A stretch of 32,000 nucleotides of DNA, taken from Candidatus Saccharimonadota bacterium. Its GTDB lineage: Bacteria > Patescibacteriota > Gracilibacteria > BD1-5 > UBA2023. The translations under genes and the position numbers were made by a program. The notes under the pieces are model-generated. The model was not told where the DNA came from. It was given only the letters and a program-made list of their open reading frames with translations, and did no database searches. The stretch is from positions 450,001 to 482,000 of the forward strand of contig OY970170.1 in assembly GCA_963706795.1 (NCBI GenBank), written 5' to 3'. Below, piece after piece: positions 1-32,000 of this stretch; positions within the stretch are counted from its first letter, which is position 1; every line of letters starts with the position of its first letter.

Positions 1-2172
1 ATCGGTGACAAACTTTGCCATCTCCGCACGTGAGACGATCATAGGGTCACCTTTTCCAAACTGCTTACTCGCACCAATGAGTTCAAAAGACGAACCATTC
101 ACACGAATATCTAGGATGAATGCATCATCGATAGTCTTAGTCAGTCCATAGAAGGATTTTTCGAATGGCTTTACAGCGATTGCAAATTTTTTGTCTCCGA
201 TGACAATCACCTGCTTTGTACTATCAAAGGCAATATTTCCAGTTGGGAGATTAATGCCAGCTTCCTTCATTTTAGGAGCATCAAGCTCTGACCAGTCGAG
301 CGTAATAGGAAAGTTAGTTGCCTTGTTGACCATGCTTGCCATCACTTCATCACGCTTAGTTGCGTATTGTGATTGTGCATTGGCGCTGTCGATCTTGGCA
401 CGCTCTGTCTGAATGGTTGCAAGCGCTGCAGCTGGCTTCGTAAGATATGCTTCGTTGTATCCCACAAGTGCAAGGAGTTGCTTGCGAAGTCCGTAGACAT
501 TCGCAAACCCCGTATCGAATTCTCCACCTGCAACTTGTTTGCGATACTGAGATTTAAATGGCTCAAACACATTATTTTTAATTGCTCCATTGATCACTGC
601 TCCAAGCGTATAGAGATCAGCCATGATCGCAGCGCGACTCGCATCATACTCTTTTGAAGCAAGAATCTTGTTTGCAATCGCTCGATATGAGCCGTCACTG
701 AGATTCTGGACGCTCATGTCCTTAAATTTTTCTACGAGATCTGGTGTGATCGCAGTACCCTGAAAGAGCGCGAGATATGGCTTGTTATGATTGAGTCGTT
801 CAGTAGCAGCTTTTTGAGCAGATTTCACTTCGTTAGTCTTGGCTTGCATGAGTTGGTTTTGCTTGTCGGCTTCGGCTTTTTGAGTTTGCTCGAGAGCAGT
901 TCGACTTTGAGTTTCGAGGGCTGTTTTGTGGTTTGCGCCAAGAGAATTGAGCTTTTGATAGAGTCCTTCGTAGTCGTTTTTAAAATCGGCTGATTCAAAT
1001 TTTGGTGTCTTGATCGCCTCATTTACTCAAGCAAGTTCGCCTGCAAATATTGCTGCCCAGAATTCTGGAGTGTCGATTTTTTGTTTTTGTTCGCGTGCAA
1101 ATTCAAAGAATGGAACAAGATTTTTACGTTTCAGACCTGAAAGATCAACTCATTTAATGAGTTCAATCTTTATAAGCTTTTTACTCTCAGGATCCGAACT
1201 TTCAGGCATGCCATTTTTTGAGAGCTGAGCAAGAATATTGAGCGACTTACGCTCTTCGAGCTCCTTTCCTACGCCCTCAATGGCCATGTCTCCATCGCTA
1301 TATCCAAGGAACTTTGCAAAAATATCACCCACAATCGGAAGACTCAGAAGCCACTTAAAGATTTCTTGTATAAACGAAGGCGCGGAAGCCAAAAAATTCA
1401 TACCCTTCTCCTTGAGTGCTTCAAGCGGGAGAATCTTGCGATCAATCTCTAAAATTTTGCCATTCAGAGAATTGAGATACGCACTAAGATCATCTTGTGA
1501 GAGCTCTGAAATTTGTGTAGGAATTTCACCACCTCTAAATCCTGCGACGAGAGCCGGATTTGAAAGAAATTTTGAGAGATTTACAGGCTTCGTTTTTTCA
1601 TCCAAAAGCTTCGTGAGTGGAACAACAGAACTATCGATGAGGTTCGTGATACGTTCCTCAAACGAATTTGCGCTCGTTTTCGCCTCTGTAGCTGCATCCT
1701 CTGGATTCGTTTTTTCTGGGGAAGATGTGAGAGCTTGGATGTATTCACCTTTTCAGAGATGATCTACTGAACTTTTGAGGGTATCAGTCGCTCATCCAAG
1801 GAGATCCATCGTCTCAGGATTTGAGAGTAGACGATCCATTGTCCCAAGAACCACACCCTTTTTTTCGGTAGGCGTAAGATTATATTTTTGGAATTTAGAC
1901 TCGATATATGCCGCAAAGGCTTTTTGATGCTCTGACGAGAAAAGCTCCGATTTTACACCAGCAAATACTCGGTCGAGTTCATGAGAACGTGCAACCTCAG
2001 GGAGCTGCGAAGAAGCATCTGTAGGCTTTGGAACTTCTGCAAGTACCTGCTTGGATTGATCTCTGACTTCTGCTTGTACGGTCGCTTTTGCAGCAATATA
2101 TTCCGTAGGAACAGGAATAGGTTTTTTGAGTGTTTCGGGAGTTGAACCCGTCTCAGAATGAAGAGTTTCCAT
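1..2172 (-). CDS. large hypothetical protein (>=724 aa, C-terminus runs off the window), coiled-coil rich, no recognisable domain
   Basis: ORF fragments 1792..2172 and 1150..1605 are in the same frame. I hand-translated the frame down to position 1 and found no TAA or TAG. There are four in-frame TGA codons (1792-94, 1753-55, 1150-52, 1027-29). ATG at 2172. Confidence 0.7.
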
Positions 2173-2223
2173 ATGAAAAAATGAATATTTGAGATTACTT
2201 TCTCATATTTTTGTCTTTTGTGC

Positions 2224-2248
2224 AAAAAACCACCCAATAGATGGGTGG
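2224..2248 (-). terminator. rho-independent terminator after the methyltransferase gene
   Basis: Stem ccaccca (2230-36) pairs with tgggtgg (2242-48), followed on the minus strand by a T-run (plus-strand aaaaaa 2224-29). Confidence 0.6.
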
Positions 2249-2268
2249 CCGAGTATGAACGAAGAAAT

Positions 2269-3705
2269 TTAGATGATCTTTTCAAGACGCACGACGGTCT
2301 CGATATGGTGTGTATGTGGAAACATATCTACAGGGATAACATCCGTGAGTCGATATTTGCCGCTTCAGAGCAAAATCTCAAGATCTCGCGCAAGCGTAGA
2401 AGGATTACAGCTCACATAGATCATCTCACTCACTCAAAACTTGAGCAGATTGAGCGGAGCGCTTGGGTGCATACCATCTCGTGGTGGATCGATGACAAGG
2501 CAATCCGCAAGCTTGCCTTGTGCAATATATGTATCAAGGAATTTTTCGACTGGAGCATTGACGGCTTCAAATTGCGTAACGCTATTTTCGTGAGCATTTG
2601 CCGTAGCATCGAGGCTCGCATCCGCGACTATTTCGACCGAATAGACATGAGAGAAGAGGTCTGCCAAAATAATTCCGATCGTTCCAGTGCCAGCATAGAG
2701 ATCAAGAAGCGTTCCACCTGGCTTTTTGATGAGTGAACGAACGGTTTCGTAGAGCTTCGTCGCGCCCAAACTATTTGTCTGAAAGAAGCTCTTCGGACGA
2801 ATCGTAAAGCGCTTTCCGAGAATTGCATCCTGAATAGTTCCCTTTCCAGCAAGAATAGACTGTTCACCCGTCACGATATCCGCTCGACCTGTGTTTTTGA
2901 GCAGGATATGAGCAACAATTGCCGGATGCTTTGCAACTTCACGCCAGACAGATTCAAAGGCTTGTTTGCCGGATTCGTCATAGCTGACGTCATTGGTATT
3001 CACGCTCCAAATGAGCATGATTTCACCGGTTGTTTTGGATTCTCGTAGGACGAGGTGACGATAAAACCCGATACCATTTCGTGGATCATACGTCGGAAGC
3101 CTACTCGCACGAGTTACGCGATCGATGATAGTAAAAATCTCGTTGACTGTATCGCTTGCAAGCACACAAAATGTGCAATCTACGATGCGGTCAAATTCGC
3201 CCTGCTTATGAAATCCAAATCGAAACTCATCATGTACTCATTCTTTAGCAGAGATGTATTTACCAAATGAGAACTCGACCTTATTGCGATATCCGTAAAT
3301 CTCAGGTGATGGAACAATCGGATGGAAAACCGGTGCTTCACCCTGCCAATATTTGCGGGTGGATTCCATACATTCGCTTACTTGTTCTGATTTGATGCGG
3401 AGCTGATCCTCATAGCCAATTGGGAGCCATTTACATCCGCCATAGACTTGGAAATGCTCGGGTAAATCGATCTCAATCGGAGATTTTTTGACTACATCGA
3501 GGAGCTGCGCCTCAAGATGGTGACTGCGAGATTTAAGTACGCGAAGATTTACAACTGAGCCAGGAATTACCCCGCCAGCAATCATGATCGCCTTGCCTTC
3601 GGCAGTGTGCGCAAGCCCCTTCCCCGAAAAGACGAGCTTTTCGACAGTGACATTTTGAATGATATCGTTCTTTTTCATGGCGGGAATTGTAGGGAAAAAT
3701 GCCAT
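2269..3705 (-). CDS. 23S rRNA (uracil-C5)-methyltransferase, RumA/RlmD/TrmA family (TRAM + class I SAM MTase)
   Basis: Fragments 3238..3705 and 2434..3165 are in frame and joined through TGA at 3238, 2434 and 2365. SAM motif LLDLYAGTGTIG; catalytic C-terminus IYVSCNPSTLARD...PVDMFPHTHHIETV. TAA stop at 2269-71. The start could instead be the MKKNDII Met at 3678. Confidence 0.85.
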
Positions 3706-3755
3706 TTTGTCATAAAAAAATCCCCGAATGATCGGAGATTTTAAAGAAGTATATT

Positions 3756-4298
3756 TTAGAATTCGAGGCCCTTGCTTGTGAGCTCGTAGAGCGTACCGTC
3801 AGATACGAGTGATGTAGATGCAAGGTTAATGGGCGTCGCTGCTTTGTTTTTACGAGCAAATGCAACCGTAAAGAGATCAGTGTTTGCTACGACATTCGCA
3901 GGAGTTTTAAAGCGAACAATGACGAGCGCTACACCATCGATATTCGAAACTTTGGAGATTTCGATATTTTTGTCTTCGTCATTTTCGAGATTGAGCATCT
4001 TGAGTGCTGTAGGATCGAAGAGAACCGTTGCCTGAATCTCGCGAACATTAGTCGCTTCGTGCATAAGTCGGAGCTTGATCATATCGGTTCCAGTACCTGC
4101 ATTGGCAATCACGATATCAGGAGTACCCGTCTCTTTCTTGCCTCAGGCGTATTCGATTGCAGAAGCCTGGAGCTTTACTCCAGTGTTTGTACCCATGAGA
4201 AACGCGTTTACTCCGATAGCAAATGCGAACGCACAAACCGCTATGGCAATATGTTTCTTGGTGTTTTGTTTTTTGAACTCAGTGAAAAGATCTTTCAT
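3756..4298 (-). CDS. hypothetical N-terminally membrane-anchored or secreted protein (180 aa)
   Basis: Extending ORF 3756..4112 upstream through TGA at 4143-45 reaches ATG 4298. The N-terminus is MKDLFTEFKKQNTKKHIAIAVCAFAFAIGVNAFLMG (signal anchor). TAA stop at 3756-58. Confidence 0.65.
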
Positions 4299-4340
4299 TT
4301 GGAAAAAATGTTTATTATCATGATCTTATCGTATCATCGC

Positions 4341-5000
4341 ATGCAGGTCAAACAAAAAGCACTTTCGATTGTTGGAGTGGACGAGGCGGGCCGAGGTTCA
4401 TGGGCCGGACCCGTTTTTGCTGCGGCCTTTGTCGTTCTCAGTCCAAAAGTCCTCAGAGCCCCTTGGTGGAAGATGCTCAATGACTCAAAAGTCCTCACTG
4501 CCAAAAAACGCGAATATCTCTTCGAATGCATCCACGAGGCAAAGACATCTGGATGGGTCGACTTTGCAATCGGACAATCATCTGCTCTACAAATCGATAC
4601 ATTTGGCATCAAAGAAGCCAACAGAATGGCCATGTCTCAAGCACTTCTCGCCATTCGACAAAATTGAAATATTAAGTCGCGTTTAATTCAGATCGATGGT
4701 AATGACAAATATCGCTTCCCTGAGCTCTGAGATATGGAGGTCGAGTTTATTATACGCGGAGACTCAAAAGTGAAGTCGATTTCTGCCGCTTCTATCCTTG
4801 CAAAAGTTGGACGAGACCAGCACATGACTGCTCTCGCAAAAAACAATCCAAAATATGGGTTCGAGATACACAAGTGATATGGGACAAAAAAACACATGGA
4901 AATGCTCACGCTTTTTTGACCGTCTTGCGATCATCGTGCGTCTTATGCACCCATAAAAAACTTGCTTTCGACCCCAAAAGACCTATATTTTTGTGGATAA
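4341..5000 (+). CDS. rnhB: ribonuclease HII
   Basis: [37 protein letters not shown], then HK[TGA]YGTKKH and LF[TGA][11 protein letters not shown]. Both of these TGA codons fall on Gly residues conserved in RNase HII (HKGY; HG..HR.SF.P). Four in-frame TGA; TAA stop at 4998-5000. Confidence 0.9.
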
Positions 5001-5010: not shown

Positions 5011-6048
5011 ATGAAAAAATTCCTCGTTCTTATATCGCTCCTGTCTCTTGGACTCGGAGCCAATCAGGCGTTCGCTGCAACCGGAGATGTCTCGGATGTA
5101 CAGAGCGCAGTACTCCAGTCTCTCACAAAGCTCGTACAGTCATATGAAGGGCGACTTACTACACTCGAAGACGAAGTAAATCGCCTCCGTATTGAAAACG
5201 AATCCCTCAGGGCACGGCTTGGAACTGGAACGATTGTTACAAAACCAACCGTCACTACTCCAGCAGTCGAGGCGGCAAAAACTCCCCAGGAGTTGAAATA
5301 CAACGCTATCATGTCAAACATCAATGTTGATCTCATGAAGATCCTCACTGATAACAATCTCACGGCCACAGGATCGATCGGACTCTTCGAATTTATCGAA
5401 CCAGATGCGTTCTTTATCTCAATCGATGACGGAGCAAATCCAGCGGGAGTTACGGCATTTAAGACGAAGATTCTCTTCAAATATGACGCAAATCTCAAGC
5501 TCACAACCGTCGGAGTATTCAGTCTCGATTATGCGTCTGGGCGCTACGTCACACTCAAAGGAAGCAACCCATACACGACCGGAACTCGAATCCGCGTAAA
5601 AAATCCAGCCTACAAAGGAAAACTCCTCGAAGAAAAAACTCCAACAACTACCGACGGAACTATCACTGCAACAAAGCCGACAAGCCCAACGGTTACCATC
5701 CCACCTACAACACCAGCTACCGGCACTGGGAGCACTGACGTAGCTACGCTCGATGCTATTCGTAAAGCCTACGAAAAAAACAAACTTGGACCAGCTGTTG
5801 AGCTCGCAACATCATACCTCGCCCAAAATCCTGGTAATGTTGAAGTCCTCACTATCCGAGCACGCAGCTACTACATCATCGGCAATCTTGAGTCAGCCAT
5901 CGTTGACATCAAGAGTATCTATGCAATCCAAAAGGACGCGATAGACTGTGGTATCGTCAATGACGGAGCCCGCGCCGAGAAGTCCCTCAAGGGAGCTAAG
6001 GGTACAGCTATCACCGACATCCAAACTGCAAAGTGTAAGAAGAAATAG
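5011..6048 (+). CDS. secreted hypothetical protein with N-terminal coiled coil, Thr/Pro linker and C-terminal TPR-like helical region
   Basis: ATG 5011 gives MKKFLVLISLLSLGLGANQAFA (signal peptide). The ORF runs uninterrupted to TAG at 6046-48. The product assignment is inference only. Confidence 0.7.
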   Translation: MKKFLVLISLLSLGLGANQAFAATGDVSDVQSAVLQSLTKLVQSYEGRLTTLEDEVNRLRIENESLRARLGTGTIVTKPTVTTPAVEAAKTPQELKYNAIMSNINVDLMKILTDNNLTATGSIGLFEFIEPDAFFISIDDGANPAGVTAFKTKILFKYDANLKLTTVGVFSLDYASGRYVTLKGSNPYTTGTRIRVKNPAYKGKLLEEKTPTTTDGTITATKPTSPTVTIPPTTPATGTGSTDVATLDAIRKAYEKNKLGPAVELATSYLAQNPGNVEVLTIRARSYYIIGNLESAIVDIKSIYAIQKDAIDCGIVNDGARAEKSLKGAKGTAITDIQTAKCKKK

Positions 6049-6375: not shown

Positions 6376-7626
6376 CTACACCTTCTCAATGATGGCCTTT
6401 GTTCCCTTTCAGAGGATGCTCTCGATAGTTAAGCGAAATCCGTGGGCCTCCGCGATCTTTTTGGCAACCGAGAGACCAAGGCCATGTCCTGAACCATGGG
6501 CACGAGAAGAATCTGCTTTGTAGAAGCGATCAAAAATAAATGGAAGTTTGTCAGGATCAATTCCTGATCAGTGATCTGTAATCTCAATACGATCTTGCGT
6601 AAAAGATATTTCAATCTTGGTATCTTTGTCGCTATATTTGAGTGCATTGCCCACCAGATTGAAGAGCACGGTTGCGAAGAGTTCCGGTGCGACTTCCCAG
6701 AGTACGGGCTTCTTTGGGGTAATGGTAAGCCTGTGAGCTTCTGCTGGGAAAAGACGAGTGATGAGGCTTTGAAGTTCGGTATGCTCGCGGACAAGCTCGG
6801 TATTCTCAAGACGAGCAAACAGAAGGAGCTTATCAACCAGCTCAGAGAGTGCGGCGGTCTCATCGAGAACACGGGCGATGGTTTTTTCGTATGTCTTTTT
6901 ATGAAGTCCAAGTTCGAGGGTACTTCGGAGTTCGAAGAGTCGATTCTTGAGCTCATGGGCAAGATCATCCGAAAACTGTTCAAGTCGCCCTGTATTTTGG
7001 ATGAGCCGTGCAAAAAGCTCATCCATCGAGGCTCAAAGCATGACAAATTCATCCTTTTTATCACCTGAGAGACCAACTCGCACGCTTTCGAATGGGCTGT
7101 GTGGATCGAAATCTTGAGCCTTCTTAGCCATGACACGAATCGGACGGAAAAGATACCATGTAAAAAAGAATGCAAGAAGCGACACCACTCAGAGAGCTAC
7201 AAGCGAGAGAATTCTCGTTCTCTTCACGAGATCAAATTTTGTACCGACAACATCTGTCACGTCATCCGCAACCGCAAAAATAGAGCCGTCTGGAAGCTTG
7301 TCAGGAAGTATCGCGTAATAGCGATCGCCAATTGGCTTAATATCTCAGGGTTGTATCCCATCTAGTGAATCGATCTGCTCAAAAACGCCAGATCGAAAAT
7401 TAACAACTCCATCAGCACCCACAAGGCAGACATTTTTGAGCTTCTTTTTAGCCTCATCAAGAGAGAGCATGGAGTGCATGTCAGATTTCATGATCGACAT
7501 TTTTTTGTCCTGCCAGTCTGCTTCGGCGAGCGAAAAAATCGCATAATTAAAAACTGCGAGTACCCCCATGACAATCGCCACAAAGAGGAGGAATATTTTT
7601 GTACGGGCCTTAAGCATCAATAACAT
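6376..7626 (-). CDS. sensor histidine kinase (two TM segments, HisKA + HATPase_c)
   Basis: Fragments 7345..7632 and 6568..7026 are in frame. H-box LAHELKNRL, N-box LFNLVGNALKYS, G1 ITDH[TGA]SGI (DxGxG), G2 GSGHGLGLSVA. Five in-frame TGA; TAG stop at 6376-78. The start (7626 or 7617) overlaps the end of the regulator gene. Confidence 0.85.
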
Positions 7627-8293
7627 AACCAACGAGTTTGATAGTACGAATAATGGGTGTCCCGAGTTTGCGTCTGAGATAGGCTATATGGACATTGATT
7701 GTGTCAGACTCGAGCGAAAAATCGGATCCATGGTCACCCCACACGAGCTCAAAAATCCTATCTCGCGATAGAACAATTCCCTTATTTTTGAGAAGCACAA
7801 CCAAGAGATCATATTCTTTGGGCGAAAGGGGAACTTCTTGGTTTTTGCGAAATACCTTGTGAGCCTCGAGGTCAACGCGGATATCACCGGTCACGAGCGA
7901 CGATTGAGTTGCGAGATTTTGAGAAATTTGCGTTCCTGATCTTCTGAGAATATTTTCGATACGAAGCTTTAATTCTTGGAGATCAAAAGGCTTTACGAGA
8001 TAGTCATCAGCTCAGAGTGAGAGTCATTCGATGCGGTCAATAGACTTGCCAAGAGCTGTGAGAAACAAAAATGGGATGCGGATTTTTTTCGCTTCTAAAA
8101 GTCGAACCAGACTGATCCCATCCATACGTGGCATCATCCGATCCAGGATCAAAAAATCAAAGCGATTACGGATGATCGCTTCGTAGGCTTCTTCACCATT
8201 GCTCACGCTCACAACATCAAAATGGTGACTTGTGAGATATTCGGCGATATTTTCGGCAATGATTGGACTATCTTCGGCAATAAGAATGCGCAT
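7610..8293 (-). CDS. OmpR/PhoB-family response regulator
   Basis: Fragments 8024..8293 and 7610..7894 are in frame. Receiver domain MRILIAEDS...LILDRMMPRMDG, then DRIE[TGA]LSL[TGA]ADDYLVKPF (canonical GL..GADDY). Winged-helix C-terminus ends VGYVIDA. TAA stop at 7610-12. Confidence 0.9.
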
Positions 8294-8470: not shown

Positions 8471-8695
8471 ATGAAGCTGTTCGCACTTTTTGCAGTTATC
8501 GCAAGCCTCCTCCTCAGTACTCAAGCATTTGCCGCTACGAGCGACACCGAAGGATTTGATGTACTTTTTAATAATGCCATGAAGACCTCCGCAACTATGA
8601 AGAAACCAACGGTCGTCAAAAAAGTGGTCACTAAAAAGCCAGTGAAAAAAATTATCATCAAAAAGAAGGTTCCAACTACTGGAGCGAAGCAATAA
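8471..8695 (+). CDS. small secreted lysine-rich protein (74 aa)
   Basis: ATG 8471 gives MKLFALFAVIASLLLSTQAFA (signal peptide), followed by a K/V/T-rich tail. TAA stop at 8693-95. Confidence 0.55.
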   Translation: MKLFALFAVIASLLLSTQAFAATSDTEGFDVLFNNAMKTSATMKKPTVVKKVVTKKPVKKIIIKKKVPTTGAKQ

Positions 8696-8700: not shown

Positions 8701-9303
8701 ATGAATACCGTTACGCATCTCGCACTCAAATCAATAAAATGACAGCCACTCACGCGGGCGACTCAACTCATTTTTGATCAGAGTGGCATAAAAGAAGCTA
8801 TATCATCGCTTCCTCTTAGACAGGTTTTGATATTGTCAGATACCATCTTGCAGGAATGTAATCTGAAGCCTGGCGATCTGCGTGAAAATATCGTGGTTCG
8901 ATTCGATAATTTGCATGATTTGCCATCTGGAACAGTTATTCAAATAGGAGAAGCTCGTATTCGCTTAACTTTTCACTGTGAGCCGTGCAGAGTCGCGCTC
9001 GAAAAAGTCAGTCTCAAAAAAATACTCCATAGACGTTGAGTATTGGGTACATTTCTCAATGAATGAACAATCCAGATAGGCGATACTATTACTGTAACAA
9101 AGGAAATATTTGAATCCATCCCCTACGAACTTCCCGAAAGAATCAGATGGTATTTAGATGGACAGACATCTCCCGTTACCACAAGCAAGATGTTGCACGA
9201 TATCGGAGTGTCATCTGTGTACGCACGGGCTGTTCCAAAATTCCTCAAAAAATTACCTCAGTCATATGCTGATTTGGTAATATTTGCATCAAAAAAACCT
9301 TAA
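8701..9303 (+). CDS. MOSC-domain protein (YiiM-like)
   Basis: ATG 8701 is in frame with ORF 8827..9039, joined through three TGA codons. GDLRENIVV...IGEARIRLTFHCEPC...HRR[TGA]VLGTFLNE[TGA]TIQIGDTITV matches the MOSC beta-barrel pattern. TAA stop at 9301-03. Confidence 0.7.
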
Positions 9304-9369: not shown

Positions 9370-11016
9370 TTAGTACATTCCGCCCATTCATCCCATGCCG
9401 CCCATAGCTTCGTGGTTATGGGATTCTGATTGGTCCTTTTTTGGGGCTTCGACGATGAGCGCCTCAGTCGTGAGGAACATTCCGGCAATACTGATCGCGT
9501 TTTCGAGTGCGCAGCGGGCAACCTTTTTTGGATCGATGATACCAGATTTGATCATATCAACGAAGGTATCAGTTGCGGCATCATATCCGTAATTAATATC
9601 TGCGGATTTTACGATATCAGAGACAACAAGGGCACCTTCTTTGCCTGCATTTTCAGCAATCTGACGAACAGGATATGCGAGGGCTCGGGCCACGATCTGT
9701 GCACCAATCTCTTGATCACGGTTTGTGAGGCGGAGATTTGCGAGTGCACTTGATGCTTTGAGCAGCGCGACTCCTCCACCAGCAACAACACCTTCTTCGA
9801 CCGCAGCCTTAGTAGCATTGAGAGCATCTTCGATACGGAGCTTTTTTTCTTTCATCTCGACTTCGGAGGCGGCACCGACTTTGATGACGGCGATTCCACC
9901 AGCGAGCTTCGCGAGACGCTCAGCAAATTTTTCACGATCGTAGTCAGATTTGGTGTTTTCGATCTGAGAACGGATCTCATTAACGCGGCGAGCAATGAGG
10001 TCTTTGTCACCAGCACCACCGATGATAGTTGTTGAATCCTTCTTTGCGACAACCGTCTTGGCATGTCCGAGATGCTCAAGTGAAGCGATATCGAGTTTGT
10101 AGCCGAGTTCTTCGGTAATAACGGTCGCACCAGTGAGTACCGCAAGATCCTTGAGCATTTCTTTTTTGCGATCTCCAAATCCTGGAGCCTTGATCGCGAG
10201 AACATTGAGAATTCCCTTGAGCTTATTGAGGATGATACCAGTGAGCGCATCTCCGTCGACGTCATCTGCGATGATGACGAGATCGCGTTTCCCGTTACCA
10301 GCAAGTTGCTCGAGTACTGGGAGGATATCTTTGAGAGAAGAGACTTTTTTGTCCGTGATGAGGATATGAGCATCACTGATGCGTGCCTCCATTTTTTCGG
10401 CATCACTGACCATATATGGAGAGATATATCCGGTTTCAAATTTCATTCCTTCGGTAAGCTCGACTGCGAGACCAAAGGTTTGACCTTCTTCAACCGTGAT
10501 TACTCCGTCTTTTCCGACCTTGTCCATAGCGTCAGAGATGATAGCTCCGACTTCGGCATCTTGGGCAGAGATGGTCGCTACTTGAGCGATTTCTTCTTTG
10601 CTTGAGAGCATTTTTGCATTTTTAGCGAGCTCGATCTCGATGATCTCGCCTGCCTTCTTCATACCGTTCTTGAGCTCAATTGCGTTGATCCCTGAGCGGA
10701 TTTCGCGGAGACCTTCTTTGATCATCGCGTAAGTAAGAAGTGTCGCAGTTGTTGTTCCGTCACCAGCTGCGTCATTTGTGCGAGATGCTGCTTCTTTAAT
10801 AAGCTCGGCCCCCATGTTTTCGATTTTGTTTTCGAGCTCGATTTCTTTGGCGATCGTAACACCATCGTTGGTGATCTGTGGAGCTCCGTAGCCCTTAGAA
10901 AAAATGACATTGCGTCCTTTTGGGCCAATCGTCGCGGTAACCGTCTTTGCGACCTTCTCGATACCTGCGAACATCTGAAGACGTGCTTCGTCTCCAAAAT
11001 GGATGTTTTTAGACAT
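9370..11016 (-). CDS. groL: chaperonin GroEL (548 aa)
   Basis: The true start is [12 protein letters not shown] at 11016; the track ORF start at 11178 overlaps groES. The body matches GroEL throughout ([32 protein letters not shown]). The C-terminus reads AMGGMG[TGA]MGGMY, ending at TAA 9370-72, which restores the classic GGM repeat only if TGA is Gly. Confidence 0.97.
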
Positions 11017-11041
11017 ATGATATGAGTTATGTTGAGTAGAT

Positions 11042-11332
11042 TTATGCGACCTTTGCCAAGATATATTCGTATGCAACGATCTTGTATTTTTGACCGTCGA
11101 GCTCGACTTCATCGCCTGAATACTGTCCAGAGAGGACTTTGTCGCCCGTTTTGAGATCAATAGTGACCAATTTGCCATCCTTGTCGGTTTTACCAGGGCC
11201 TACGGCAACGACTTCGTAGATATATGGTCGCTCTTTGTTGGCTGATGCTGGGAGAATAATACCGCTCTTCGTGACATTTTCTGCTTCGAGACCCTTGAGA
11301 AGGACGCGATCCGAAAGTGGTTCGATATGCAT
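11042..11332 (-). CDS. groS: co-chaperonin GroES (96 aa)
   Basis: MHIEPLSDRVLLK...GIILP...YIYEVVAVGPG...GDKVL..YSG..V. It lies immediately upstream of groEL. TAA stop. Confidence 0.95.
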   Translation of the reverse strand: MHIEPLSDRVLLKGLEAENVTKSGIILPASANKERPYIYEVVAVGPGKTDKDGKLVTIDLKTGDKVLSGQYSGDEVELDGQKYKIVAYEYILAKVA

Positions 11333-11355
11333 AAATACTGAATCTTAGGATTAAA

Positions 11356-11394
11356 TTAGCATCGGAATTATATACGTGCTAAAATCTGAGTCAA
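11356..11394 (-). promoter_or_regulatory. groESL promoter (TTGACT-N16-TATAAT) overlapping a degenerate CIRCE-like inverted repeat
   Basis: The minus strand reads TTGACTcagatTTTAGCACGTATATAATTCCGATGCTAAttt. The -35 is at 11389-94 and the -10 at 11367-72. TTAGCAcgt-N9-cgaTGCTAA at 11356-82 resembles CIRCE (TTAGCACTC-N9-GAGTGCTAA). Confidence 0.6.
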
Positions 11395-11413
11395 GAAAAT
11401 ATCCGAGACAGAT

Positions 11414-11441
11414 TTGACAACCCGATCTAAAATCGTACAAA
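11414..11441 (+). promoter_or_regulatory. candidate sigma70-type promoter at the left edge of the SD-led islet
   Basis: TTGACA (11414-19), a 16 nt spacer, then TACAAA (11436-41). Confidence 0.3.
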
Positions 11442-11631
11442 TGTGCTGTCAATCGTCATCTTACCGGATGAAAAGAGGATACTTGGAGGGTTACGATTAT
11501 CGTCGTGATTCTCTGAGGCAAAAGCTTTTCCCGTCAATTCTTCATCAAAAATTAATGGAGGTTTGTATGACTGAAGAATAAACCCTTCAGGAAGCGTGGT
11601 ATTAATGAACATCACGAGAAAGGAAGAAGTT

Positions 11632-12042
11632 ATGCAAAAAGGTATGAGCATCATCTGCATTGTCGGCATGTGCGCAGCAAGCATGGCATCCGCCATGAAT
11701 CTGTCAGTAGCTCTGTCGGCAGAACATGCAATCGAAGGAAAGGTGTTGGTAGTAAGTCAGCCTGGCGAAGGCCTGGATCCGGTCGTCTCCGAAGTTACAC
11801 AACAGGAAATGATCGCACTGATTTGCCCATATCAACTGGAAAAACTGGAAGTCGGCATCTTCGATGTTGGCAAGCTGCAAGCTTCACTTGTAGACAATCA
11901 AAATCCAGTTCTGCCAAATTCTGCCACTCGCCACCCCGCGGTGCTGGGCGTTCAGTCGCCTATCAGCGCACAGCAAAAAAATATCAAAGTCGCCTACAGT
12001 GCCAGCCGTATCGACAAGCCAGGCGGGCATCTCCGCTTGTAG
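11632..12042 (+). CDS. hypothetical secreted protein (136 aa), orphan
   Basis: SD-like AAGGA lies 7 nt upstream of ATG 11632. The N-terminus MQKGMSIICIVGMCAASMASA resembles a signal peptide. No in-frame TGA; TAG stop at 12040-42. I recognise no family. Confidence 0.6.
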   Translation: MQKGMSIICIVGMCAASMASAMNLSVALSAEHAIEGKVLVVSQPGEGLDPVVSEVTQQEMIALICPYQLEKLEVGIFDVGKLQASLVDNQNPVLPNSATRHPAVLGVQSPISAQQKNIKVAYSASRIDKPGGHLRL

Positions 12043-12158
12043 CTCGGTCAGGCCGTTGTAAAGTAATAGAAGTTGTCCCGCTCACGACCCGCACTTGGAC
12101 CCTCAAATGTTTTACCCAAGAGCGAGCCGTGAGCATCCCTTCAACACAGGAGTAAACC

Positions 12159-12440: not shown

Positions 12441-12460
12441 TTCAAATTAAGGAGGATTCC

Positions 12461-12502: not shown

Positions 12503-12538
12503 TCAGCCGAAGTTTCGTAAAAACGCAGGAGTAATAAA

Positions 12539-19352: not shown

Positions 19353-19358
19353 TTACCA

Positions 19359-19664: not shown

Positions 19665-19666
19665 CC

Positions 19667-21031
19667 ATGTCACACCTTCATCTCATCGGAGCAGGCGGAA
19701 TAGGAGTTTCTGCAGTGGGGCGATATTATAAATCGCTCGGTTGGACCGTATCTGGATCTGATGGGGCTACGAGCGATATTACCAATGACCTACAGAGCGA
19801 AGGCATCCATATCGCTATCGGCCACCGACCAGAAAACCTCCCTGACAATACCGATCTCGTCGTATATTCCGAAGCGATCATCACCAAGCCAGACCTCAGC
19901 AAAGAAGAACAACTTCTTGCAAATCCTGAGCTTCGTCTCGCGAAAGAACGCGGTATCAAGCACCGATCATATCCCGAATCACTCGGCGATATTGCGAATT
20001 CGAAGTACGAGATCGCCGTAACAGGAAGCCATGGGAAGTCCACTACCACTGGCTTTATTGGCGTAATGCTTCATGGGTCAAGTACATGAGGATCTACAAT
20101 CGTGGGCACGAAGCTCACCAATTTTGGTCGTACCAATCTCATGAGCGATCCTGAGAGTCCATTTTTCGCGATTGAAGCCTGTGAATATCGCAGATCATTC
20201 CTCAATTACACACCTGAGATCGCCATCATTACGAATATCGATCTCGATCATCTCGACTATTACAAGAGCGTTGATGACTATGTGAGTGCTTTTGTATCGT
20301 TTGTGGAGAATACAAAAACAGCGGTGATTCTGCCTGCGAGTGATATCAATTGCAAACTCCTCTACGAGCGTGTAAGCCCCGAAAAGCGCACATCTCTCAA
20401 ATGGTATTTTGTAGATCAGACTGGCTACACTCTGGATGGGAAGCGATTTGAAATCCCAAAACTCGCACTCAAGGTTCCTGGCGATCATCTCGCCTTCGAT
20501 GCTAATCTTGCTTATATCGCAGGTCGCATTATCGGGCTTACTGAGGACGAAATTAAAACGGGAGTTGAATCCTATTCTGGCGCATGGCGTCGCAGTGAAT
20601 TTGTTGGCGAAACGGCCAATGATAATCTTCTCTATTCCGATTACGGACATCATCCGAGCGAGATCAGGCCAACGCTCAAAGCAATCAAAGAAATGCATCC
20701 TGATAGACTCTTCATTGTTGTCTTTCAGCCACATCAGTATTCTCGCACACGCGAGCTTTTAGCTGATTTTGCTACAAGCTTTGATGACGCTGATGAGTTG
20801 ATTGTTCCAAATATCTACTTCTCACGAGATAAAAAAGAGGATGTCGAATGGATGACCGTTGACCGTCTCCTCGATGCGATCGAACCACACAACGAAAACA
20901 TCACTAATGGTGAAGGTCTCGAGAATACTGAGGAAATCCTCGCTCAGCTCGATGACGAAAATCCAGGGAAACTGCTCTTCCTCCTGCTTGGCGCAGGAAA
21001 TATAGACGGACTTCGCTACAATCTCATATAA
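19667..21031 (+). CDS. murC: UDP-N-acetylmuramate--L-alanine ligase
   Basis: Fragments 19667..20089 and 20102..21031 are in frame, joined through TGA at 20087-89. HLIGAGGIGVSAV...VSGSD, VTGSHGKSTTT, DYGHHPSEI. TAA stop. Confidence 0.93.
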
Positions 21032-21040
21032 AAACCCTTC

Positions 21041-21484
21041 ATGGAACACGTACCATTTGCACTCATTAAAGCCCGTGGAGTCATTATGCACGAGGGGAAG
21101 ATTTTCCTCTGCAAACTCGCTATTGGGGATGCGAGTTTTTACTGTCTCCCTGGTGGAACACTCGAAATGAATGAAACCCTCGAGACTGGACTGAGTCGCG
21201 AACTCTTCGAAGAACTCGGCGTAGAAGCAAAAGTCGGTCCACTCGTCTATACACAACAGATTATCCGAGAAAACAAAAGCACTTTTGATTACTGGTACTG
21301 GATCGAAAATGCTTCAGACTTTTTAGATATCGATCTTTCGAAAGCAAGTCATGGATTTGAACATACAGAAGTAGGATTCTATGATCCAGCTGAACTCACT
21401 GCGCCATACCGCCCACTTACACTTCCAACACTTATGAAGATTTGGTGAGAAAAAGGTCCGATATTTGTACAAGAAATCCAATAA
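21041..21484 (+). CDS. Nudix hydrolase (147 aa)
   Basis: Nudix box GGTLEMNETLETGLSRELFEELGV. One in-frame TGA at 21446-48; TAA stop at 21482-84. Confidence 0.85.
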
Positions 21485-21534: not shown

Positions 21535-21990
21535 TTAATCTTTTTCGCCTTCAACTACATTCGAAGCCTTATTTGCGACAATATCCACACACTCCTCGGT
21601 TTTTATGAGGAGTTTTTTATTGTGGATCACTCCAAGGCATGCACTTCGAATTGCTTCTATATCTGCATTCGAGGTAATATTTTTGAGTTCGCAGTTCCAA
21701 TTTGCGTGATCAAGAAGATATGCATCAAGCCAGGCAGATCTCCCAAAGTCATGAGCTGTAAGATGTACTTCCATCCGCATTACCGCTTCTAAAAATGAAG
21801 CCATAAGGTGCTCTACTTTTGGGGATTCAAATACTCCATCATCATTAATCACACCACGAATGAGTGCATAAAGGAACCCGACATCCGCGTTTTTAAAATC
21901 GTTTTCAAGTGTCCCCAGTGCTCCGATTGCAAAAGATGAATAGTCCGTAACGAGTCGTAGATGTGAAGGAGGTCGTGGAGTTTTTTCCAT
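21535..21990 (-). CDS. hypothetical protein (151 aa), second gene of the ORFan operon
   Basis: Uninterrupted ORF. Its ATG at 21990 lies 9 nt downstream of the stop of the 1031 aa gene. TAA stop at 21535-37. No family recognised. Confidence 0.7.
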   Translation of the reverse strand: MEKTPRPPSHLRLVTDYSSFAIGALGTLENDFKNADVGFLYALIRGVINDDGVFESPKVEHLMASFLEAVMRMEVHLTAHDFGRSAWLDAYLLDHANWNCELKNITSNADIEAIRSACLGVIHNKKLLIKTEECVDIVANKASNVVEGEKD

Positions 21991-25750: not shown

Positions 25751-25825
25751 TGGAGCCGCTGGCGGGAATTGAACCCGCGACCTATCCCTTACCATGGGAT
25801 TGCTCTACCACTGAGCCACAGCGGC
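25751..25825 (-). tRNA. tRNA-Thr (anticodon GGU), CCA encoded
   Basis: The reverse complement folds as a cloverleaf: acceptor GCCGCTG/CAGCGGC, D stem GCTC/GAGC, anticodon stem ATCCC/GGGAT with loop AT-GGT-AA, T arm GCGGG-TTCAATT-CCCGC, and 3' TCCA. Confidence 0.93.
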
Positions 25826-26887
25826 CTATAAAAGCTCGGCCATTATATGATCGAGCACAAAAATTCAAGGCAGAGTTGGGCGAACTTGCTCTCCTGACTG
25901 CAAAAGCAATCCCTGATCAATACACGTCTTCAAGCGCGAAGCATCAGCAACCGCTGAAATTGGAAGACTAAAGGTTCGTAATCAAAACATAGCGCTTTCG
26001 AGAGCGATTTCATGCTCAGTGAGGGTTTCTTGACCAACAACTTCTCCACGATAGTAGGCGGCAAAAGATGCGGCATTTTCAAAGCGTGTTCCATCCCAGT
26101 GACTCGCAGCAGAGAGACCAAAACCTCTCACATTTTGATGTGTCCAATATGCTCTATTATGACGACTCTCATGGCCTGGTTTTCCAAAATTAGAGATTTC
26201 GTAGTGATGCAATCCTCGCTCAGTGAGATAATGTACGATATCTGAGTACTCATCGGTCATAGCCTGATCATCAATCGCAAGGGCCTTCCAGTCCTTTGGG
26301 TAGTCACCCTTCTCTAAAAAATAGACACTCGTGTGCTTGATATTAGCGTACCGTTCATGAAGCTCTCTGATCGCCTGAAGCGTCTCGCCTGCTCGAGTGT
26401 GTGGCAGTCCAAGGATAAAGTCCACATTCACATTAGTAAATCCAGCACGAAGAGTACAATCGAGGGCTTCAAAAATAGTCGCACGAGAGCTGCGATGCAC
26501 GGCAGTAAGCGTCTCATCTTGGAGAGACTGAATACCAAGCGAGAGCCTATTTATTCAGAGTTCCCGAATACCGCGAACAAATTCCTCTGTGATATCCTCG
26601 GGATTTGCCTCGAGTGTGATTTCGATATTTGGCGCCCAGATTTCACGTGGAAATTTTGAGAGTAAAAAACCGATCTGTTCGACCGAGAGAACGCTCGGCG
26701 TCCCTCATCCAAAGTAGATGGATTGAAGTGGTGTATCTGGATTTTTTGTCTCGAAGAAATGCTCGATTTCCTTGGCTATGAAGGCAATATAACGCGCAAT
26801 CTTCGCATCCTGTACAAAAGGTGTCAGAGCAAATTTGCAGTAGGGACATTTCTGTCTGCAAAACGGAATATGGAGATACGAATACAT
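25826..26887 (-). CDS. hemW: radical SAM heme chaperone HemW / oxygen-independent coproporphyrinogen oxidase-like protein (353 aa)
   Basis: CRQKCPYC (CxxxCxxC); IYFG[TGA]GTPS (YFGGGTP); REL[TGA]INRLSLGIQS. Read-through of TGA at 25982 gives AMF[TGA]LRT... (HemN_C GLR motif). The TAG stop at 25826-28 directly abuts the tRNA. Confidence 0.88.
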
Positions 26888-27451: not shown

Positions 27452-28075
27452 TTATACGTATGCGCTGAGTACAACCTTGATCTGCTCTGCACAGGTATCA
27501 ATATCCTTGCTTGCGTCAATAGTATAGACTCGCTTCCCTTCGCTTGCCCAGAGTGCGAGGAGTGGGATAGTATTCGCATAAAATGTGTCGATGCGCTTGG
27601 CAACAGCTTCTGGATTATCGTCCTCGCGGTGAACGAGCTTATTGCCGGTATACGGACTAAAATCACCCACAAAATTCGAAGGAAAACTCTCGCCCGTTAC
27701 TGGATCGATACGTCTATTGGCGAGTCGCTCAATCGCCTTATCACGAGGAAGGTCGAGGAAAATGATCATGTACTCTGGAAATACGCTATCAAAGAGATCT
27801 TTTTGTTCTTTAGATCGTGGAATTCCATCAAACACGATTGGTGCACCCGAATGATTCGCCCGATAGTGGAGTAAAATCTTCTCAACCAGACTATTGGGTA
27901 CGAGTGCCCCTTGGGATAAAAGTTGTGCTACTTCAGCAGACTGGGGTTCTTGGAGGCCAGCAAAATTTCGGAGTTTTTGACCCATTTCAAAAAAATGGTG
28001 ACCATATGTCTCGATAATCTTTCGAGCCATTGTTCCCTTTCCGGATCCTTGAATTCCAACAAGAACTAAGTGCAT
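27452..28075 (-). CDS. adk: adenylate kinase (207 aa)
   Basis: P-loop GIQGSGKGT; FDGIPRS; LID-like region RRIDPVTGESF...REDD. Uninterrupted ORF; TAA stop. Confidence 0.92.
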   Translation of the reverse strand: MHLVLVGIQGSGKGTMARKIIETYGHHFFEMGQKLRNFAGLQEPQSAEVAQLLSQGALVPNSLVEKILLHYRANHSGAPIVFDGIPRSKEQKDLFDSVFPEYMIIFLDLPRDKAIERLANRRIDPVTGESFPSNFVGDFSPYTGNKLVHREDDNPEAVAKRIDTFYANTIPLLALWASEGKRVYTIDASKDIDTCAEQIKVVLSAYV

Positions 28076-28097
28076 AGTGTAAAAGCTGTATTAAAAT

Positions 28098-28496
28098 CGT
28101 CCACAGCATCATAAGCCGGATTCTGTACTTCGCTCTCAATCTCTCTAGGGCATGCGTCGCCGCATGTCTCAAGCAGGGTATACGCTGGGCGGTCTCGGAC
28201 CCGAACTCCCTTTGTACCATTCCCCTTGCACCACATGGGGTTTACCAACGTTCGTATGTTGCCATACGAGTCCTCGCGTAGCCGAAGCAATCTACGAGGC
28301 TTTTCACCTTTCTCCCGCCGAGGCGGGATAGTATTGTCTCTGTGGTACTTTCCGTACAACTGCTTTATGAATTATATGCAGCTGCCGCAGTCGTTATCTG
28401 CCATGCTTTCCGAGTGGTGTCCAGACTTTCCTCCCCACGCTCTGTCGGTATGCGACATACAAAAAAAGCGTGGGGTAGAGAGCGTTGCTGTGGACG
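28098..28496 (-). ncRNA. rnpB: RNase P RNA, bacterial type A
   Basis: The minus strand has a P1 pairing of CGTCCACAGCAAC (5') with GATGCTGTGGACG (3'). It also has a P3 hairpin CCCCACGC...GCGTGGGG, CR-I GAGGAAAGTCTGGACACC, GGTAAACCCCA, GTGCAAGG and CR-V ACAGAATCCGGCTTAT. Confidence 0.92.
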
Positions 28497-28597: not shown

Positions 28598-29869
28598 ATG
28601 AAGCTTCGTATTTTTGCACTCGTCATGGTCTCGGTATTGCTTGCAGGCTGCACGAATCCATTTGCTAAAAAGGATGATTTCCAGACAGTCGTCAAAACAC
28701 ATTTTGAAGCACTTGGAGAAAGCGTTGGCGGAGACTCGCTTGGTAATTTCTCTGGAACTTCTCATTTTGATGGAAATATTGCCGCAAAGAGCAAAAACCA
28801 GAGCATTGCTATCGCCTTAAACGGAGATGCAAAACAGCATGCTGGTGACTCAAGCGTCTCACTCGGCCTCGATGCTAAGCTCGAGATGGGAAGCGAAAAA
28901 CCCGTCAGTGCAAAAGGTGCATTTGAAGGCGTATTTACAACTGGAACTGGCTACGTAAAGCTCGGAAGCCTTGAACTGACTTCTGCCGAAAAGGATCCAA
29001 TGGTCGAATCAATGATCAAATCCATGATGGGACAATATGGTGGCAAGTGGATCAGTATCTCAAATACTCAAGAAGGTACTCCGACCAAGGTAGACCCAAA
29101 GGCAATTAAGGCCGCTTTTACTGCACATCCGATCTTTGCGATGACGAAAGATCTTGGTTACAAGGACGGACGCTACAATTACGAAGTAGGCCTCGATAAG
29201 ACACAGATGCTCGAGCTCGAAAAAGCCATCAATCAGGCACTCACGGGTACTGGACTCACTGATAAATCAATCGAAGCATCAAAAAAAGAAATCGAAAACA
29301 CGAGCCTCGTCGGAGTGTTTTCGGTAGAAAATGCTCATCGCGAATATGGATCATTTAGCGGAACATTCTCAAGCACTATGGGAAGTGGCGCAACTGCCAC
29401 CACCGAAACTGGCAAACTTACCTACGAAAACTCAAAAGATGCCTTTAAATTTGAAGTAAGCACCGCCGACGGAGGAATTATCGTCGCAGTCGAGAAACAG
29501 CTCACAAAGGCTATTGGAACAATCACCATCGTCGCAAAAGATAACAAGCAGACTCCGATCCATTTCACGATCGAGAAGACACTTGATGGGTACAAACTCA
29601 ATGTTGGAAGTGACTTCGATTCACCAACCGGTGAGAGAGTAACACTCACTATTGATGGAAATCTCAGTTCAAAGAAGGATGATAAAATTACAATCGACAT
29701 CCCAAAAGAGAGCATAGATCTCAAGTCACTCCTCGGTGGCATGATGGGAAGCAGCATGACAGCTACTCCAGAGAACAGTGCAGCAGCAGAAAGCATGATC
29801 GGAAGCATGGACAGCGCTCTCTCTCAAGCAGATGCCTCTGCCGGAGATGAGATGAGCATGCCTCGTTAG
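28598..29869 (+). CDS. hypothetical lipoprotein (423 aa)
   Basis: ATG 28598 gives MKLRIFALVMVSVLLAGC (lipobox LAGC). Uninterrupted ORF; TAG stop. Confidence 0.75.
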   Translation: MKLRIFALVMVSVLLAGCTNPFAKKDDFQTVVKTHFEALGESVGGDSLGNFSGTSHFDGNIAAKSKNQSIAIALNGDAKQHAGDSSVSLGLDAKLEMGSEKPVSAKGAFEGVFTTGTGYVKLGSLELTSAEKDPMVESMIKSMMGQYGGKWISISNTQEGTPTKVDPKAIKAAFTAHPIFAMTKDLGYKDGRYNYEVGLDKTQMLELEKAINQALTGTGLTDKSIEASKKEIENTSLVGVFSVENAHREYGSFSGTFSSTMGSGATATTETGKLTYENSKDAFKFEVSTADGGIIVAVEKQLTKAIGTITIVAKDNKQTPIHFTIEKTLDGYKLNVGSDFDSPTGERVTLTIDGNLSSKKDDKITIDIPKESIDLKSLLGGMMGSSMTATPENSAAAESMIGSMDSALSQADASAGDEMSMPR

Positions 29870-29912: not shown

Positions 29913-30521
29913 TTAGAAGAGTCTCATAAGACTCGTTTCTTCGAGTTCAATAACTCCACGCTTCACGAGTTCACCAAAGGACTTTGCTGTGGCTTCCACG
30001 TCGATCATCGCATCATGCGCGCCTTCGAACCATGTATCGAAGAGGAATTTGTGGAGCTCACTGAGCTTTGGCGCCTTGAAACTAAATCCACGCCCCTGGA
30101 GTTTGCAATACTCAGTCGATGAACGCATCGTACATACTGATTTGATCGGCTGATAGTCACCAGGTCGCCCAATACGTGCAAGTTCATCTCGGATTACTTG
30201 TTCATCGTATTCAATATTATGCCCAACAACAACGTCTGTGGTATTGAGATACTTGATGAATTTTTGATATACCTCCTCGATATATGGCGCATCTTCGACA
30301 TCTTTATCATAGATTCCATGAACCTGCGAAGCTCCAAACGGAATAGAGATGCGTGGCTTAATAAAAATATTCACGCGCTCGATTTCTACGAAGCCGTTTT
30401 CCTTAGAAATTTCACCAAGAATTCCCGCAAATTGAACAATATACGGCTGCTCTGCCAAGGTTCCTCCCCTGACGCTAAAACCGGTCGTTTCCGTGTCGAA
30501 TACAAATGCTTTCATGGGCAT
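29913..30521 (-). CDS. DEDDh 3'-5' exonuclease, DNA polymerase III epsilon (DnaQ)-like
   Basis: ExoI FVFDTETTG, ExoII VVGHNIEYDEQVI, ExoIII GAHDAMIDVEAT. A TATAAT (30526-31) sits immediately upstream, so the true start may be the second Met at 30515. TAA stop. Confidence 0.85.
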   Translation of the reverse strand: MPMKAFVFDTETTGFSVRGGTLAEQPYIVQFAGILGEISKENGFVEIERVNIFIKPRISIPFGASQVHGIYDKDVEDAPYIEEVYQKFIKYLNTTDVVVGHNIEYDEQVIRDELARIGRPGDYQPIKSVCTMRSSTEYCKLQGRGFSFKAPKLSELHKFLFDTWFEGAHDAMIDVEATAKSFGELVKRGVIELEETSLMRLF

Positions 30522-30634
30522 GGATTATAGGGAGAAGGGGTGAAAATCAAGGGTGAAAATTACAATATGAGAGTTCTATTTTGCTATCAGAATCTGCCCC
30601 TTATACTTTCTCGAGTTCTATCAACTTTCAGTCT

Positions 30635-31192
30635 ATGAAAAAACCTCGCGTCATATATCTCCACGGAAATGATGCAACTCATTGGTCTTTTGCTTGGGCG
30701 CCCTGGCTAAAAAGCGAATTGGAGAAGTGAGGCTATCCAGTGTTTTTTGAAACATTTCCAGATTCGATCATGGCACGAAGTGAATACTGGTTGCCATTCT
30801 TAAAAGAACATATTCAAGCCTGAGAGAATGACATCCTCGTAGGATGGTCTTCCGGTGCTGTAGCAGCTATGAGATACGCCGAACAGCAGAAGATTCTGTG
30901 ATCTATCCTTGTTGGAGCATGCTATACAGATTTAGGTGATGACAAGGAGAAGATTTCTGGCTACTATTCTCAGCCCTGGTTATGGGAAAAGATACGCGGG
31001 AACCAAGATTGGATTGTACAATTTGGCTCCGTAGATGACCCCTGTATTCCCATAGAGGAAAGCAGGTTTGTTAATACTAAACTCAATTCAGAGTATACCG
31101 AATTTCCTGACCGTGAACACTTTGGTTGGCCAACAAAGATGTTAGAGTTTCCTGAGTTACTAGATGCGATTATTCACTATACAGGTAAGTAG
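30635..31192 (+). CDS. alpha/beta serine hydrolase, YdeN/RBBP9 family (185 aa)
   Basis: Not present in the standard-code track. ATG 30635 with three in-frame TGA gives VIYLHGNDATHW...ILVGWSSGAVAA (GxSxG)...QFGSVDDPCIP...REHFGW. TAG stop at 31190-92. Confidence 0.75.
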
Positions 31193-31338
31193 GTAACTCT
31201 TTTTATGAATATCACAAAAAACAATAGCATAGCACTTAGAGTTTAATTATTTATACGTTCTGGTACGAGTGGTATCCGCATTGGCACAGCTTGAATCGCT
31301 CTCCATGAAGAAAAGATTTATGAAAGAAAGGAGGTAAT

Positions 31339-31366
31339 TTGCAAAACCTATCCTGACCCATAGAAT
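31339..31366 (+). promoter_or_regulatory. candidate promoter TTGCAA-N16-TAGAAT
   Basis: The -35 is at 31339-44 and the -10 at 31361-66, upstream of the SD-led membrane-protein ORF. Confidence 0.45.
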
Positions 31367-31411
31367 GCACCAGATTGAGATCCCTCAATCATAGACGCCA
31401 CGGAGGTTCAT

Positions 31412-31741
31412 ATGAAATACATTTTGCATCTCACAAAAATCAATACATTGACGGGTTTAGTAATCTGCTTGTTTATATTTGAGAGAGACGGGGATCGTAC
31501 ACGTTTTATGGGTATGGATCATACGGAGATTGGATGTATTTTATTTCTAATACATATATTGATCTCTGTAATGTTCGCGCACTACGTCATACACCTTGAT
31601 GATGAATGGTTATGCAGAAGCGATATACACTATAATGAAAGGTTACGAATGCACCGCTTGGGCAATAAAAAGTTATGTGGTTTTCATGTAGCATACACCA
31701 CAATCTTGCTAGGCTATATATGCAATGTTTACCTGAGTTGA
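31412..31741 (+). CDS. orphan small membrane protein (109 aa; 114 aa ending at 31756 under table 25) with canonical SD
   Basis: GGAGG lies 5 nt upstream of ATG 31412. Hydrophobic segments LTGLVICLFIF, IGCILFLIHILISVMFAHYVI and VAYTTILLGYICNVYL. The local sequence is AT-rich. It ends at TGA 31739-41. Confidence 0.5.
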   Translation: MKYILHLTKINTLTGLVICLFIFERDGDRTRFMGMDHTEIGCILFLIHILISVMFAHYVIHLDDEWLCRSDIHYNERLRMHRLGNKKLCGFHVAYTTILLGYICNVYLS

Positions 31742-31810
31742 CACTCCACCTGCTAAAATCTGATCTACACCAACTTCAGCATTGTCTGTATGATCAACAA
31801 TCTATAAAAT

Positions 31811-31839
31811 AAAGCCCATCCTTATTCGGATGGGCTTTT
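31811..31839 (+). terminator. rho-independent terminator
   Basis: aaagcccatcc (31811-21) pairs with ggatgggcttt (31828-38), followed by a T-run. Confidence 0.8.
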
Positions 31840-31932
31840 ACTTATAACAGAAGTAGTCTCTAGGAATTCTTCAAAAACGATGGGATTTGTATGAAGACTG
31901 CCGCTAGCGCCCCCTATTGTGAGGTTACCGGA

Positions 31933-32000
31933 GTGCGGTGTAGCAGTGCTACACCAAACGAGGAAACGCAAAGCCTGAACACGAAGATCGAAGCTATTTA
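31933..32000 (+). mobile_element. possible 5' end of a group II intron (truncated by the window edge)
   Basis: GTGCG start followed by the hairpin GTGTAGCAGTGCTACAC, then GAGGAAAC and CCTGAACACGAAGATCGAAGC. From memory this resembles domain I 5' sequences of bacterial group II introns (for example ...CCCGAACUGUGAAGGCAGAAG...). Confidence 0.3.

Follow-up and report, generated by a model that had tools for sequence, protein, structure and literature searches.

Gene content and termination in the window

We analysed 32 kb of contig OY970170.1 (positions 450,001–482,000; hereafter the window), in which an earlier note, made from the DNA letters alone, had read the codon UGA as glycine, as in translation table 25. 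The window has a GC content of 44.8%, and TGA is the most frequent of the three stop triplets in each of its frames. With TAA and TAG as the sole stops and starts picked by homology, we called 24 protein genes (8,549 codons), including the cell-wall genes murI, murD and murC, groEL and groES, secD and a kinase–regulator pair (Table 1). In 17 of these genes UGA is read through, and it serves as an ordinary glycine codon of fairly low frequency. The genome almost certainly uses table 25, with UGA as glycine and only UAA and UAG as terminators, and probably belongs to the Gracilibacteria lineage of the candidate phyla radiation (CPR; Patescibacteria).

In-frame TGA codons number 68, close to the roughly 70 counted by hand before, and the eight coordinates that the note had quoted (9388, 8024, 8012, 6568, 15475, 26705, 4875 and 20087) all fall in frame within the genes it named. 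Every one of the 23 genes that are complete in the window ends in TAA (17) or TAG (6) and none in TGA, as the note had held. Coding density reaches ∼82% under these stops, compared with ∼58% when table-11 open reading frames (ORFs) are taken in the true frames with a minimum length of 60 aa. The claim that a standard-code track breaks or misses most genes also holds: table 11 truncates, splits or loses 17 of 24, leaving murI as just a 77-aa C-terminal ORF (15949–16182) and no ORF of at least 60 aa in the hydrolase region at 30600–31200. Read with table 25, Pfam domains continue unbroken over the TGA codons (RNase_HII, HisKA/HATPase_c, Response_reg, Asp_Glu_race, Radical_SAM, Mur_ligase, Mur_ligase_M, Mur_ligase_C, tRNA_U5-meth_tr, MOSC and Ser_hydrolase). 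The RNase_HII match covers residues 11–190 of RNase HII, TGAs included, and the three Mur ligase domains of MurC share one frame over TGA 20087. TGA accounts for 68 of 627 glycine codons (10.8%); GGN codons make up 6.5% of all codons and glycine including TGA 7.3%. It is most frequent in big lineage-specific hypothetical genes (10 and 15 copies).

Table 1. Features of the window, with in-frame TGA codons and stop codons as read with TAA and TAG as sole stops.
Feature	Position	Strand	In-frame TGA	Stop	Remarks
Large lineage-specific hypothetical (>724 aa)	1–2172	−	4: 1792, 1753, 1150, 1027		C-terminus beyond window; no Pfam match
RlmD/TrmA-type RNA (uracil-5) methyltransferase	2269–3678	−	3: 3238, 2434, 2365	TAA	
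RNase HII (RnhB)	4341–5000	+	4: 4665, 4728, 4875, 4917	TAA	
Secreted protein	5011–6048	+	0	TAA or TAG	
Sensor histidine kinase	6376–7626	−	5: 7345, 7189, 7033, 6568, 6409	TAG	HisKA, HATPase_c
OmpR-type response regulator	7610–8293	−	2: 8024, 8012	TAA	Response_reg covers both TGAs
Small secreted protein	8471–8695	+	0	TAA or TAG	
MOSC-domain protein	8701–9303	+	3: 8740, 9037, 9064	TAA	
GroEL	9370–11016	−	1: 9388	TAA	TGA inside GGM tail
GroES	11042–11332	−	0	TAA or TAG	
136-aa protein	11632–12042	+	0		Hydrophobic N-terminus
93-aa XRE/HTH_3 regulator	12159–12440	+	0		
SecD-like export protein	12920–14707	+	1: 12926	TAA	TGA is codon 3
HAD hydrolase	14801–15442	+	1: 14996	TAA	
Glutamate racemase MurI	15445–16182	+	4: 15475, 15601, 15706, 15742	TAA	
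Lineage-specific hypothetical, 592 aa	16175–17953	−	10	TAG	No Pfam match
MurD	18045–19352	+	6: 18075, 18516, 18666, 18696, 18960, 19218	TAA	
MurC	19667–21031	+	1: 20087	TAA	
NUDIX hydrolase	21041–21484	+	1: 21446	TAA	
Hypothetical	21535–21990	−	0	TAA or TAG	
Lineage-specific hypothetical, 1031 aa	22000–25095	−	15	TAA	No Pfam match
tRNA-Thr(GGU)	25751–25825	−			Directly downstream of HemW-like gene
HemW-like radical SAM protein	25826–26887	−	4: 26705, 26555, 25982, 25865	TAG	
Adenylate kinase	27452–28075	−	0	TAA or TAG	
Bacterial class A RNase P RNA	28095–28495	−			181 bits
Lipoprotein	28598–29869	+	0	TAA or TAG	
Exonuclease	29913–30515	−	0	TAA or TAG	
Serine hydrolase (PF06821)	30635–31192	+	3: 30728, 30821, 30899	TAG	

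Fragmentation of the region by table-11 gene callers is what would be expected if the TGAs were real stops, i.e. marks of pseudogenes or assembly errors, or sites of selenocysteine insertion or programmed read-through. We give this explanation next to no credence. Since the affected genes include the essential murC, murD, murI, groEL and secD, pseudogenisation is not credible, and there are no frameshifts. Assembly error is countered by the Logan contig ERR12037365 (35.9 kb), an independent assembly that is 100% identical to the window over 11.9 kb (9426–21332). Conserved glycines stand opposite TGAs and relatives carry TGA at the same columns (see below). As for selenocysteine, no TGA lies opposite cysteine, and the genes that carry the codon have ordinary housekeeping roles. 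These tests exclude pseudogenes, selenocysteine recoding and table 11.

Glycine opposite UGA in standard-code homologues

To avoid biasing the alignments, each TGA was masked as X before the window proteins were aligned to solved structures. Glycine was the majority residue in 13 of the 24 scorable TGA columns and tryptophan in none (binomial P ∼2 × 10^−9 at a 7.2% glycine background), which answers the earlier suggestion to score the residue opposite each TGA in family alignments. Summed per-column log-odds were +20.8 nats for glycine, −24.5 for the next residue and −38.3 for tryptophan. As judged from these alignments, the residue inserted at UGA is glycine, not tryptophan or selenocysteine.

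The glycine columns lie in recognisable motifs of several families. In the response regulator, residues 90 and 94 of the G-L-x-x-G-A-D-D-Y motif, both encoded by TGA, align with glycine in PhoP and PrrA. The TGA in the G1 box of the kinase (6568) is opposite glycine in two of three PDB kinases, and that in its C-terminal G-x-G (6409) in two of two. The same holds for HemW residues 61 (26705, GGGTP) and 111 (26555) against HemN and NocN, for RnhB residues 178 and 193 (4875 and 4917) against chains of PDB 7uwe and 5y9p, for MurI residues 11 and 100 (15475 and 15742) against PDB racemases, and for RlmD residue 415 (2434) in its PDB alignment. The other scorable sites are in columns that vary or contain gaps: RnhB 130, MurI 53 and 88, MurD 11, 158, 208, 218 and 392, MurC 141, and RlmD 147 and 438, the other two TGAs of that gene. 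To describe the TGA sites as invariant glycine positions goes too far for some of them: MurC 141 and MurD 208, 218 and 392 are in columns that are variable and not glycine.

Some TGAs lie so near a terminus that both readings give plausible proteins, namely those of GroEL, the NUDIX hydrolase (12 codons before the end) and SecD. UGA might then be ambiguous or context-dependent, mostly glycine and at some gene ends a terminator. Taken alone, the GroEL codon is a weak example, because a protein ending ...AMGGMG would still be plausible. However, no gene requires a TGA stop, given that all 23 complete genes have TAA or TAG, and the GroEL tail column is glycine (8) or TGA (1) in relatives. Published genomes of the lineage lack release factor 2 (PMC6851277), and we consider a context-dependent UGA very unlikely.

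UGA exchanges with GGN in related loci

To compare codons across the lineage, we used a MurD alignment to scan one genome per GTDB species and obtained at least 80 loci: the 46 closest of those listed (MurD identity 36–59%, mostly labelled Gracilibacteria or Patescibacteria) and 34 distant ones from ordinary CPR, Chloroflexi and similar taxa, which use the standard code. All loci were translated with TGA masked and aligned to the window proteins. Within orthologous alignments, in-frame TGA was found in 45 of the 46 close loci compared with none of the 34 standard-code loci. Relatives' in-frame TGAs (n = 824) stood opposite GGN in the window 531 times, opposite TGA 56 times and never opposite a tryptophan or cysteine codon. 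Conversely, window TGAs were opposite GGN in 39% and TGA in 16% of cases, and window TGG codons aligned in relatives (n = 289) were matched by TGG in 91% and never by TGA.

Individual columns show the same exchange. At MurI residues 11, 53 and 100, relatives have glycine and TGA in ratios of 19 to 5, 14 to 12 and 14 to 13, respectively. MurD residue 11 is glycine in 33 relatives and TGA in 9; residue 306 is glycine in 30 and TGA in 9, and glycine also in 30 of the 34 standard-code loci. In the variable column of MurC residue 141, relatives have glycine five times and TGA once. The four HemW positions read glycine, glycine, glycine and TGA in one relative (L045). Together with the glycine columns in homologues, this exchange bears out the proposal of glycine and table 25.

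If UGA instead encoded tryptophan, as in table 4, it would equally be a clear sense codon. Table 4 is used by Mycoplasmatales, Hodgkinia, Zinderia and others, several insect endosymbionts among them. UGA→Trp has also been newly reported in a few Patescibacteriota, the first such cases in the phylum (gTranslate preprint). In the window, conserved tryptophan columns are all TGG, and neither a window TGA nor any of the 824 TGAs of relatives falls on a tryptophan column; the log-odds given above point the same way. On this codon comparison, the pattern is that of a codon synonymous with GGN over a clade, and table 4 is excluded because TGA in relatives exchanges with GGN and never with TGG. The probability that we would leave to table 4 is negligible.

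The same alignments were screened for all codons, and only TGA was flagged convincingly; flags for AGA and AGG came from very few, pseudo-replicated columns. A change of CGA and CGG to tryptophan is on record for Absconditabacteria and for some of the Gracilibacteria (PMC8629427); it was not seen in the window, whose 97 CGA and 11 CGG codons align to arginine. For CGG, the aligned residue was arginine in 81 of 96 comparisons with relatives and in 33 of 70 with standard-code loci.

TGA use varied about 100-fold among loci L002–L046, being lowest in L003 (1 TGA per 1,586 aligned codons) and highest in L037 (66 per 1,013); the window (68 in 8,549) is intermediate. Ten loci (L003, L004, L017, L019, L032, L039, L042, L043, L046 and L081) are contigs of metagenome-assembled genomes labelled ‘uncultured Candidatus Peribacteria bacterium’, and these bear in-frame TGA, mostly opposite glycine. 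Peribacteria are regarded as standard-code organisms. For these ten records, the taxonomic label, or the code it implies, looks wrong.

Public records carry fragmented and mistranslated genes

Many database homologues show tryptophan at TGA columns, which at face value would favour table 4. Among MurD homologues in a large public protein collection, W stands on conserved glycine columns; residue 306, for example, is G in 83 and W in 30. Over the whole homologue set (P0003–P0122), W makes up 2.6% and G 5.5% of residues. The tryptophans could be traced to DNA for P0004, which corresponds to locus L082 (Logan SRR21620675 contig, 3001–4344): of the 12 W residues in this protein, 8 are encoded by TGA. 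Tryptophan in database homologues is therefore an artefact of table-4 translation and not evidence for tryptophan. Many Gracilibacteria relatives in the collection have been translated with table 4.

Errors of the opposite kind, from table 11, affect the window itself. Its genome (a 1,267,896-bp contig; sources NCBI and ENA) is kept in a public collection with table-11 calls, and a truncated GroEL of 542 aa is present there. Full-length table-25 products of MurC, the response regulator, GroEL, MurI, HemW and RnhB were looked up in the protein collection and were absent. Standard-code calls on ERR12037365 are likewise broken up, with two parts for MurC (140 and 296 aa) and several pieces for MurD.

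Gene calls, domain assignments and neighbourhood analyses in the window all hinge on table 25. Table 11 leaves murI as a fragment, hides the hydrolase at 30635 and breaks murD into pieces. Table 4 puts tryptophan in place of glycine at 68 positions, some of them in catalytic glycine-rich motifs such as the G1 box of the kinase and GGGTP of the radical SAM protein. Large public collections of proteins from the lineage already contain errors of both kinds.

Gene neighbourhoods and other features

L082, a relative with 57% identity in MurD, keeps the order HAD hydrolase, murI, a large hypothetical on the other strand, murD and, after a short gap, murC. The hypothetical of 592 aa is therefore part of a conserved cell-wall gene neighbourhood. 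It is one of three large proteins that are rich in TGA and match no Pfam family (>724 aa, 4 TGAs; 592 aa, 10; 1031 aa, 15). Their sole homologue in the fetched loci was a distant one, between the 592-aa protein and L004 (26% identity).

Between groES and secD there are two small genes without TGA, and both are also called in the Logan contig. In L045, the same tRNA-Thr(GGU) is close to the homologues of HemW, adenylate kinase and the exonuclease. Several table-11 ORFs of 97–113 aa that overlap the RNase P RNA (28095–28495) on both strands are spurious. From 31193 to 32000, where GC content is at its lowest for any kilobase of the window (39%), there was no convincing gene under either code and no Rfam match. 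Neither tandem repeats nor anomalies of composition turned up in scans of the window.

Lineage and decoding of UGA

MurD alone served as the homologue-search query; a concatenated five-protein query of 1721 aa matched nothing. The search of the protein collection gave a best identity of 57%, with the names Candidatus Gracilibacteria, Candidatus Altimarinota and ‘uncultured bacterium (gcode 4)’. The nearest homologues of MurD, GroEL, SecD and MurC carry Gracilibacteria labels, and TGA is a sense codon in them. The closest species-representative MurD among the matches listed is 59% identical.

Table 25 is the Candidate Division SR1 and Gracilibacteria code, found in GTDB class JAEDAM01 with the orders BD1-5 and Absconditabacterales, and a tRNA(UCA) with the glycine identity elements G1:C72, C2:G71, G3:C70 and U73 is among its defining features. 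From published work on the lineage, UGA would be decoded by a dedicated tRNA-Gly whose anticodon is UCA, and release factor 2 (RF2, encoded by prfB) would have been lost and RF1 kept. With RF2 lost, RF1 alone would handle both UAA and UAG. Neither prfB nor the RF1 gene lies within the window. The code had been noted as already described for Gracilibacteria and Absconditabacteria, and the literature agrees: UGA→Gly is listed for both, with presence of tRNA-Gly(UCA) and absence of RF2 as corroborating criteria (PMC8629427), and prfB was undetected in every BD1-5 genome then available (PMC6851277). The latter cites Hanke et al. 2014 for proteomic validation. The gTranslate preprint gives the same hallmarks of table 25 and states that coding-density heuristics cannot tell table 4 from table 25.

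Some points weigh against reading the window in this way. About half of the TGA sites are in variable or non-glycine columns, for example MurD 208 against a mostly glutamine column; such sites say nothing on the amino acid. The window has no tRNA(UCA), tRNA-Thr(GGU) being its sole tRNA, and no tRNA(UCA) was found in the 46 related loci. Finally, the exact placement is inferred from homologues at most 59% identical, because the window's genome is not among the species-representative matches listed.

Table 25 in a Gracilibacteria-lineage genome nevertheless remains our reading. A further possibility, which we consider improbable, is that the genome is a deep branch, so far undescribed and comparatively rich in GC, of the clade that reads UGA as glycine, or that its UGA has a residual, context-dependent stop role near gene ends. 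The branch is suggested by the lack of any representative above 59% in MurD among the matches listed. Either possibility, if true, would bear on the origin of the reassignment outside a low-GC ‘codon capture’ setting.

Comparison with known genetic codes

In-frame UGA within a gene is also the sign of selenocysteine recoding, but the window has 68 such sites in housekeeping genes, opposite glycine and never cysteine. With table 4, it shares UGA as a sense codon and the same fragmentation of table-11 calls; it differs in that UGA is glycine and TGG is kept at every conserved tryptophan. The extended code of Absconditabacteria (Shulgina & Eddy 2021) has UGA→Gly in common with the window but reads CGA and CGG as tryptophan, whereas both align to arginine here.

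The window shares with table-25 genomes UGA as glycine, UAA and UAG as sole stops and a small CPR host genome (1.27-Mb contig), and its nearest homologues, labelled Gracilibacteria, have in-frame TGA at glycine columns too. Its GC content is high within the published clade range of 0.21–0.53 (PMC8629427) and considerably higher than in the first BD1-5 genome to be closed (28.9%; PMC6851277). The code, the lineage and the mechanism have all been published and no new biology is involved; the window shows no difference in kind from table 25 and is a member of this known group.

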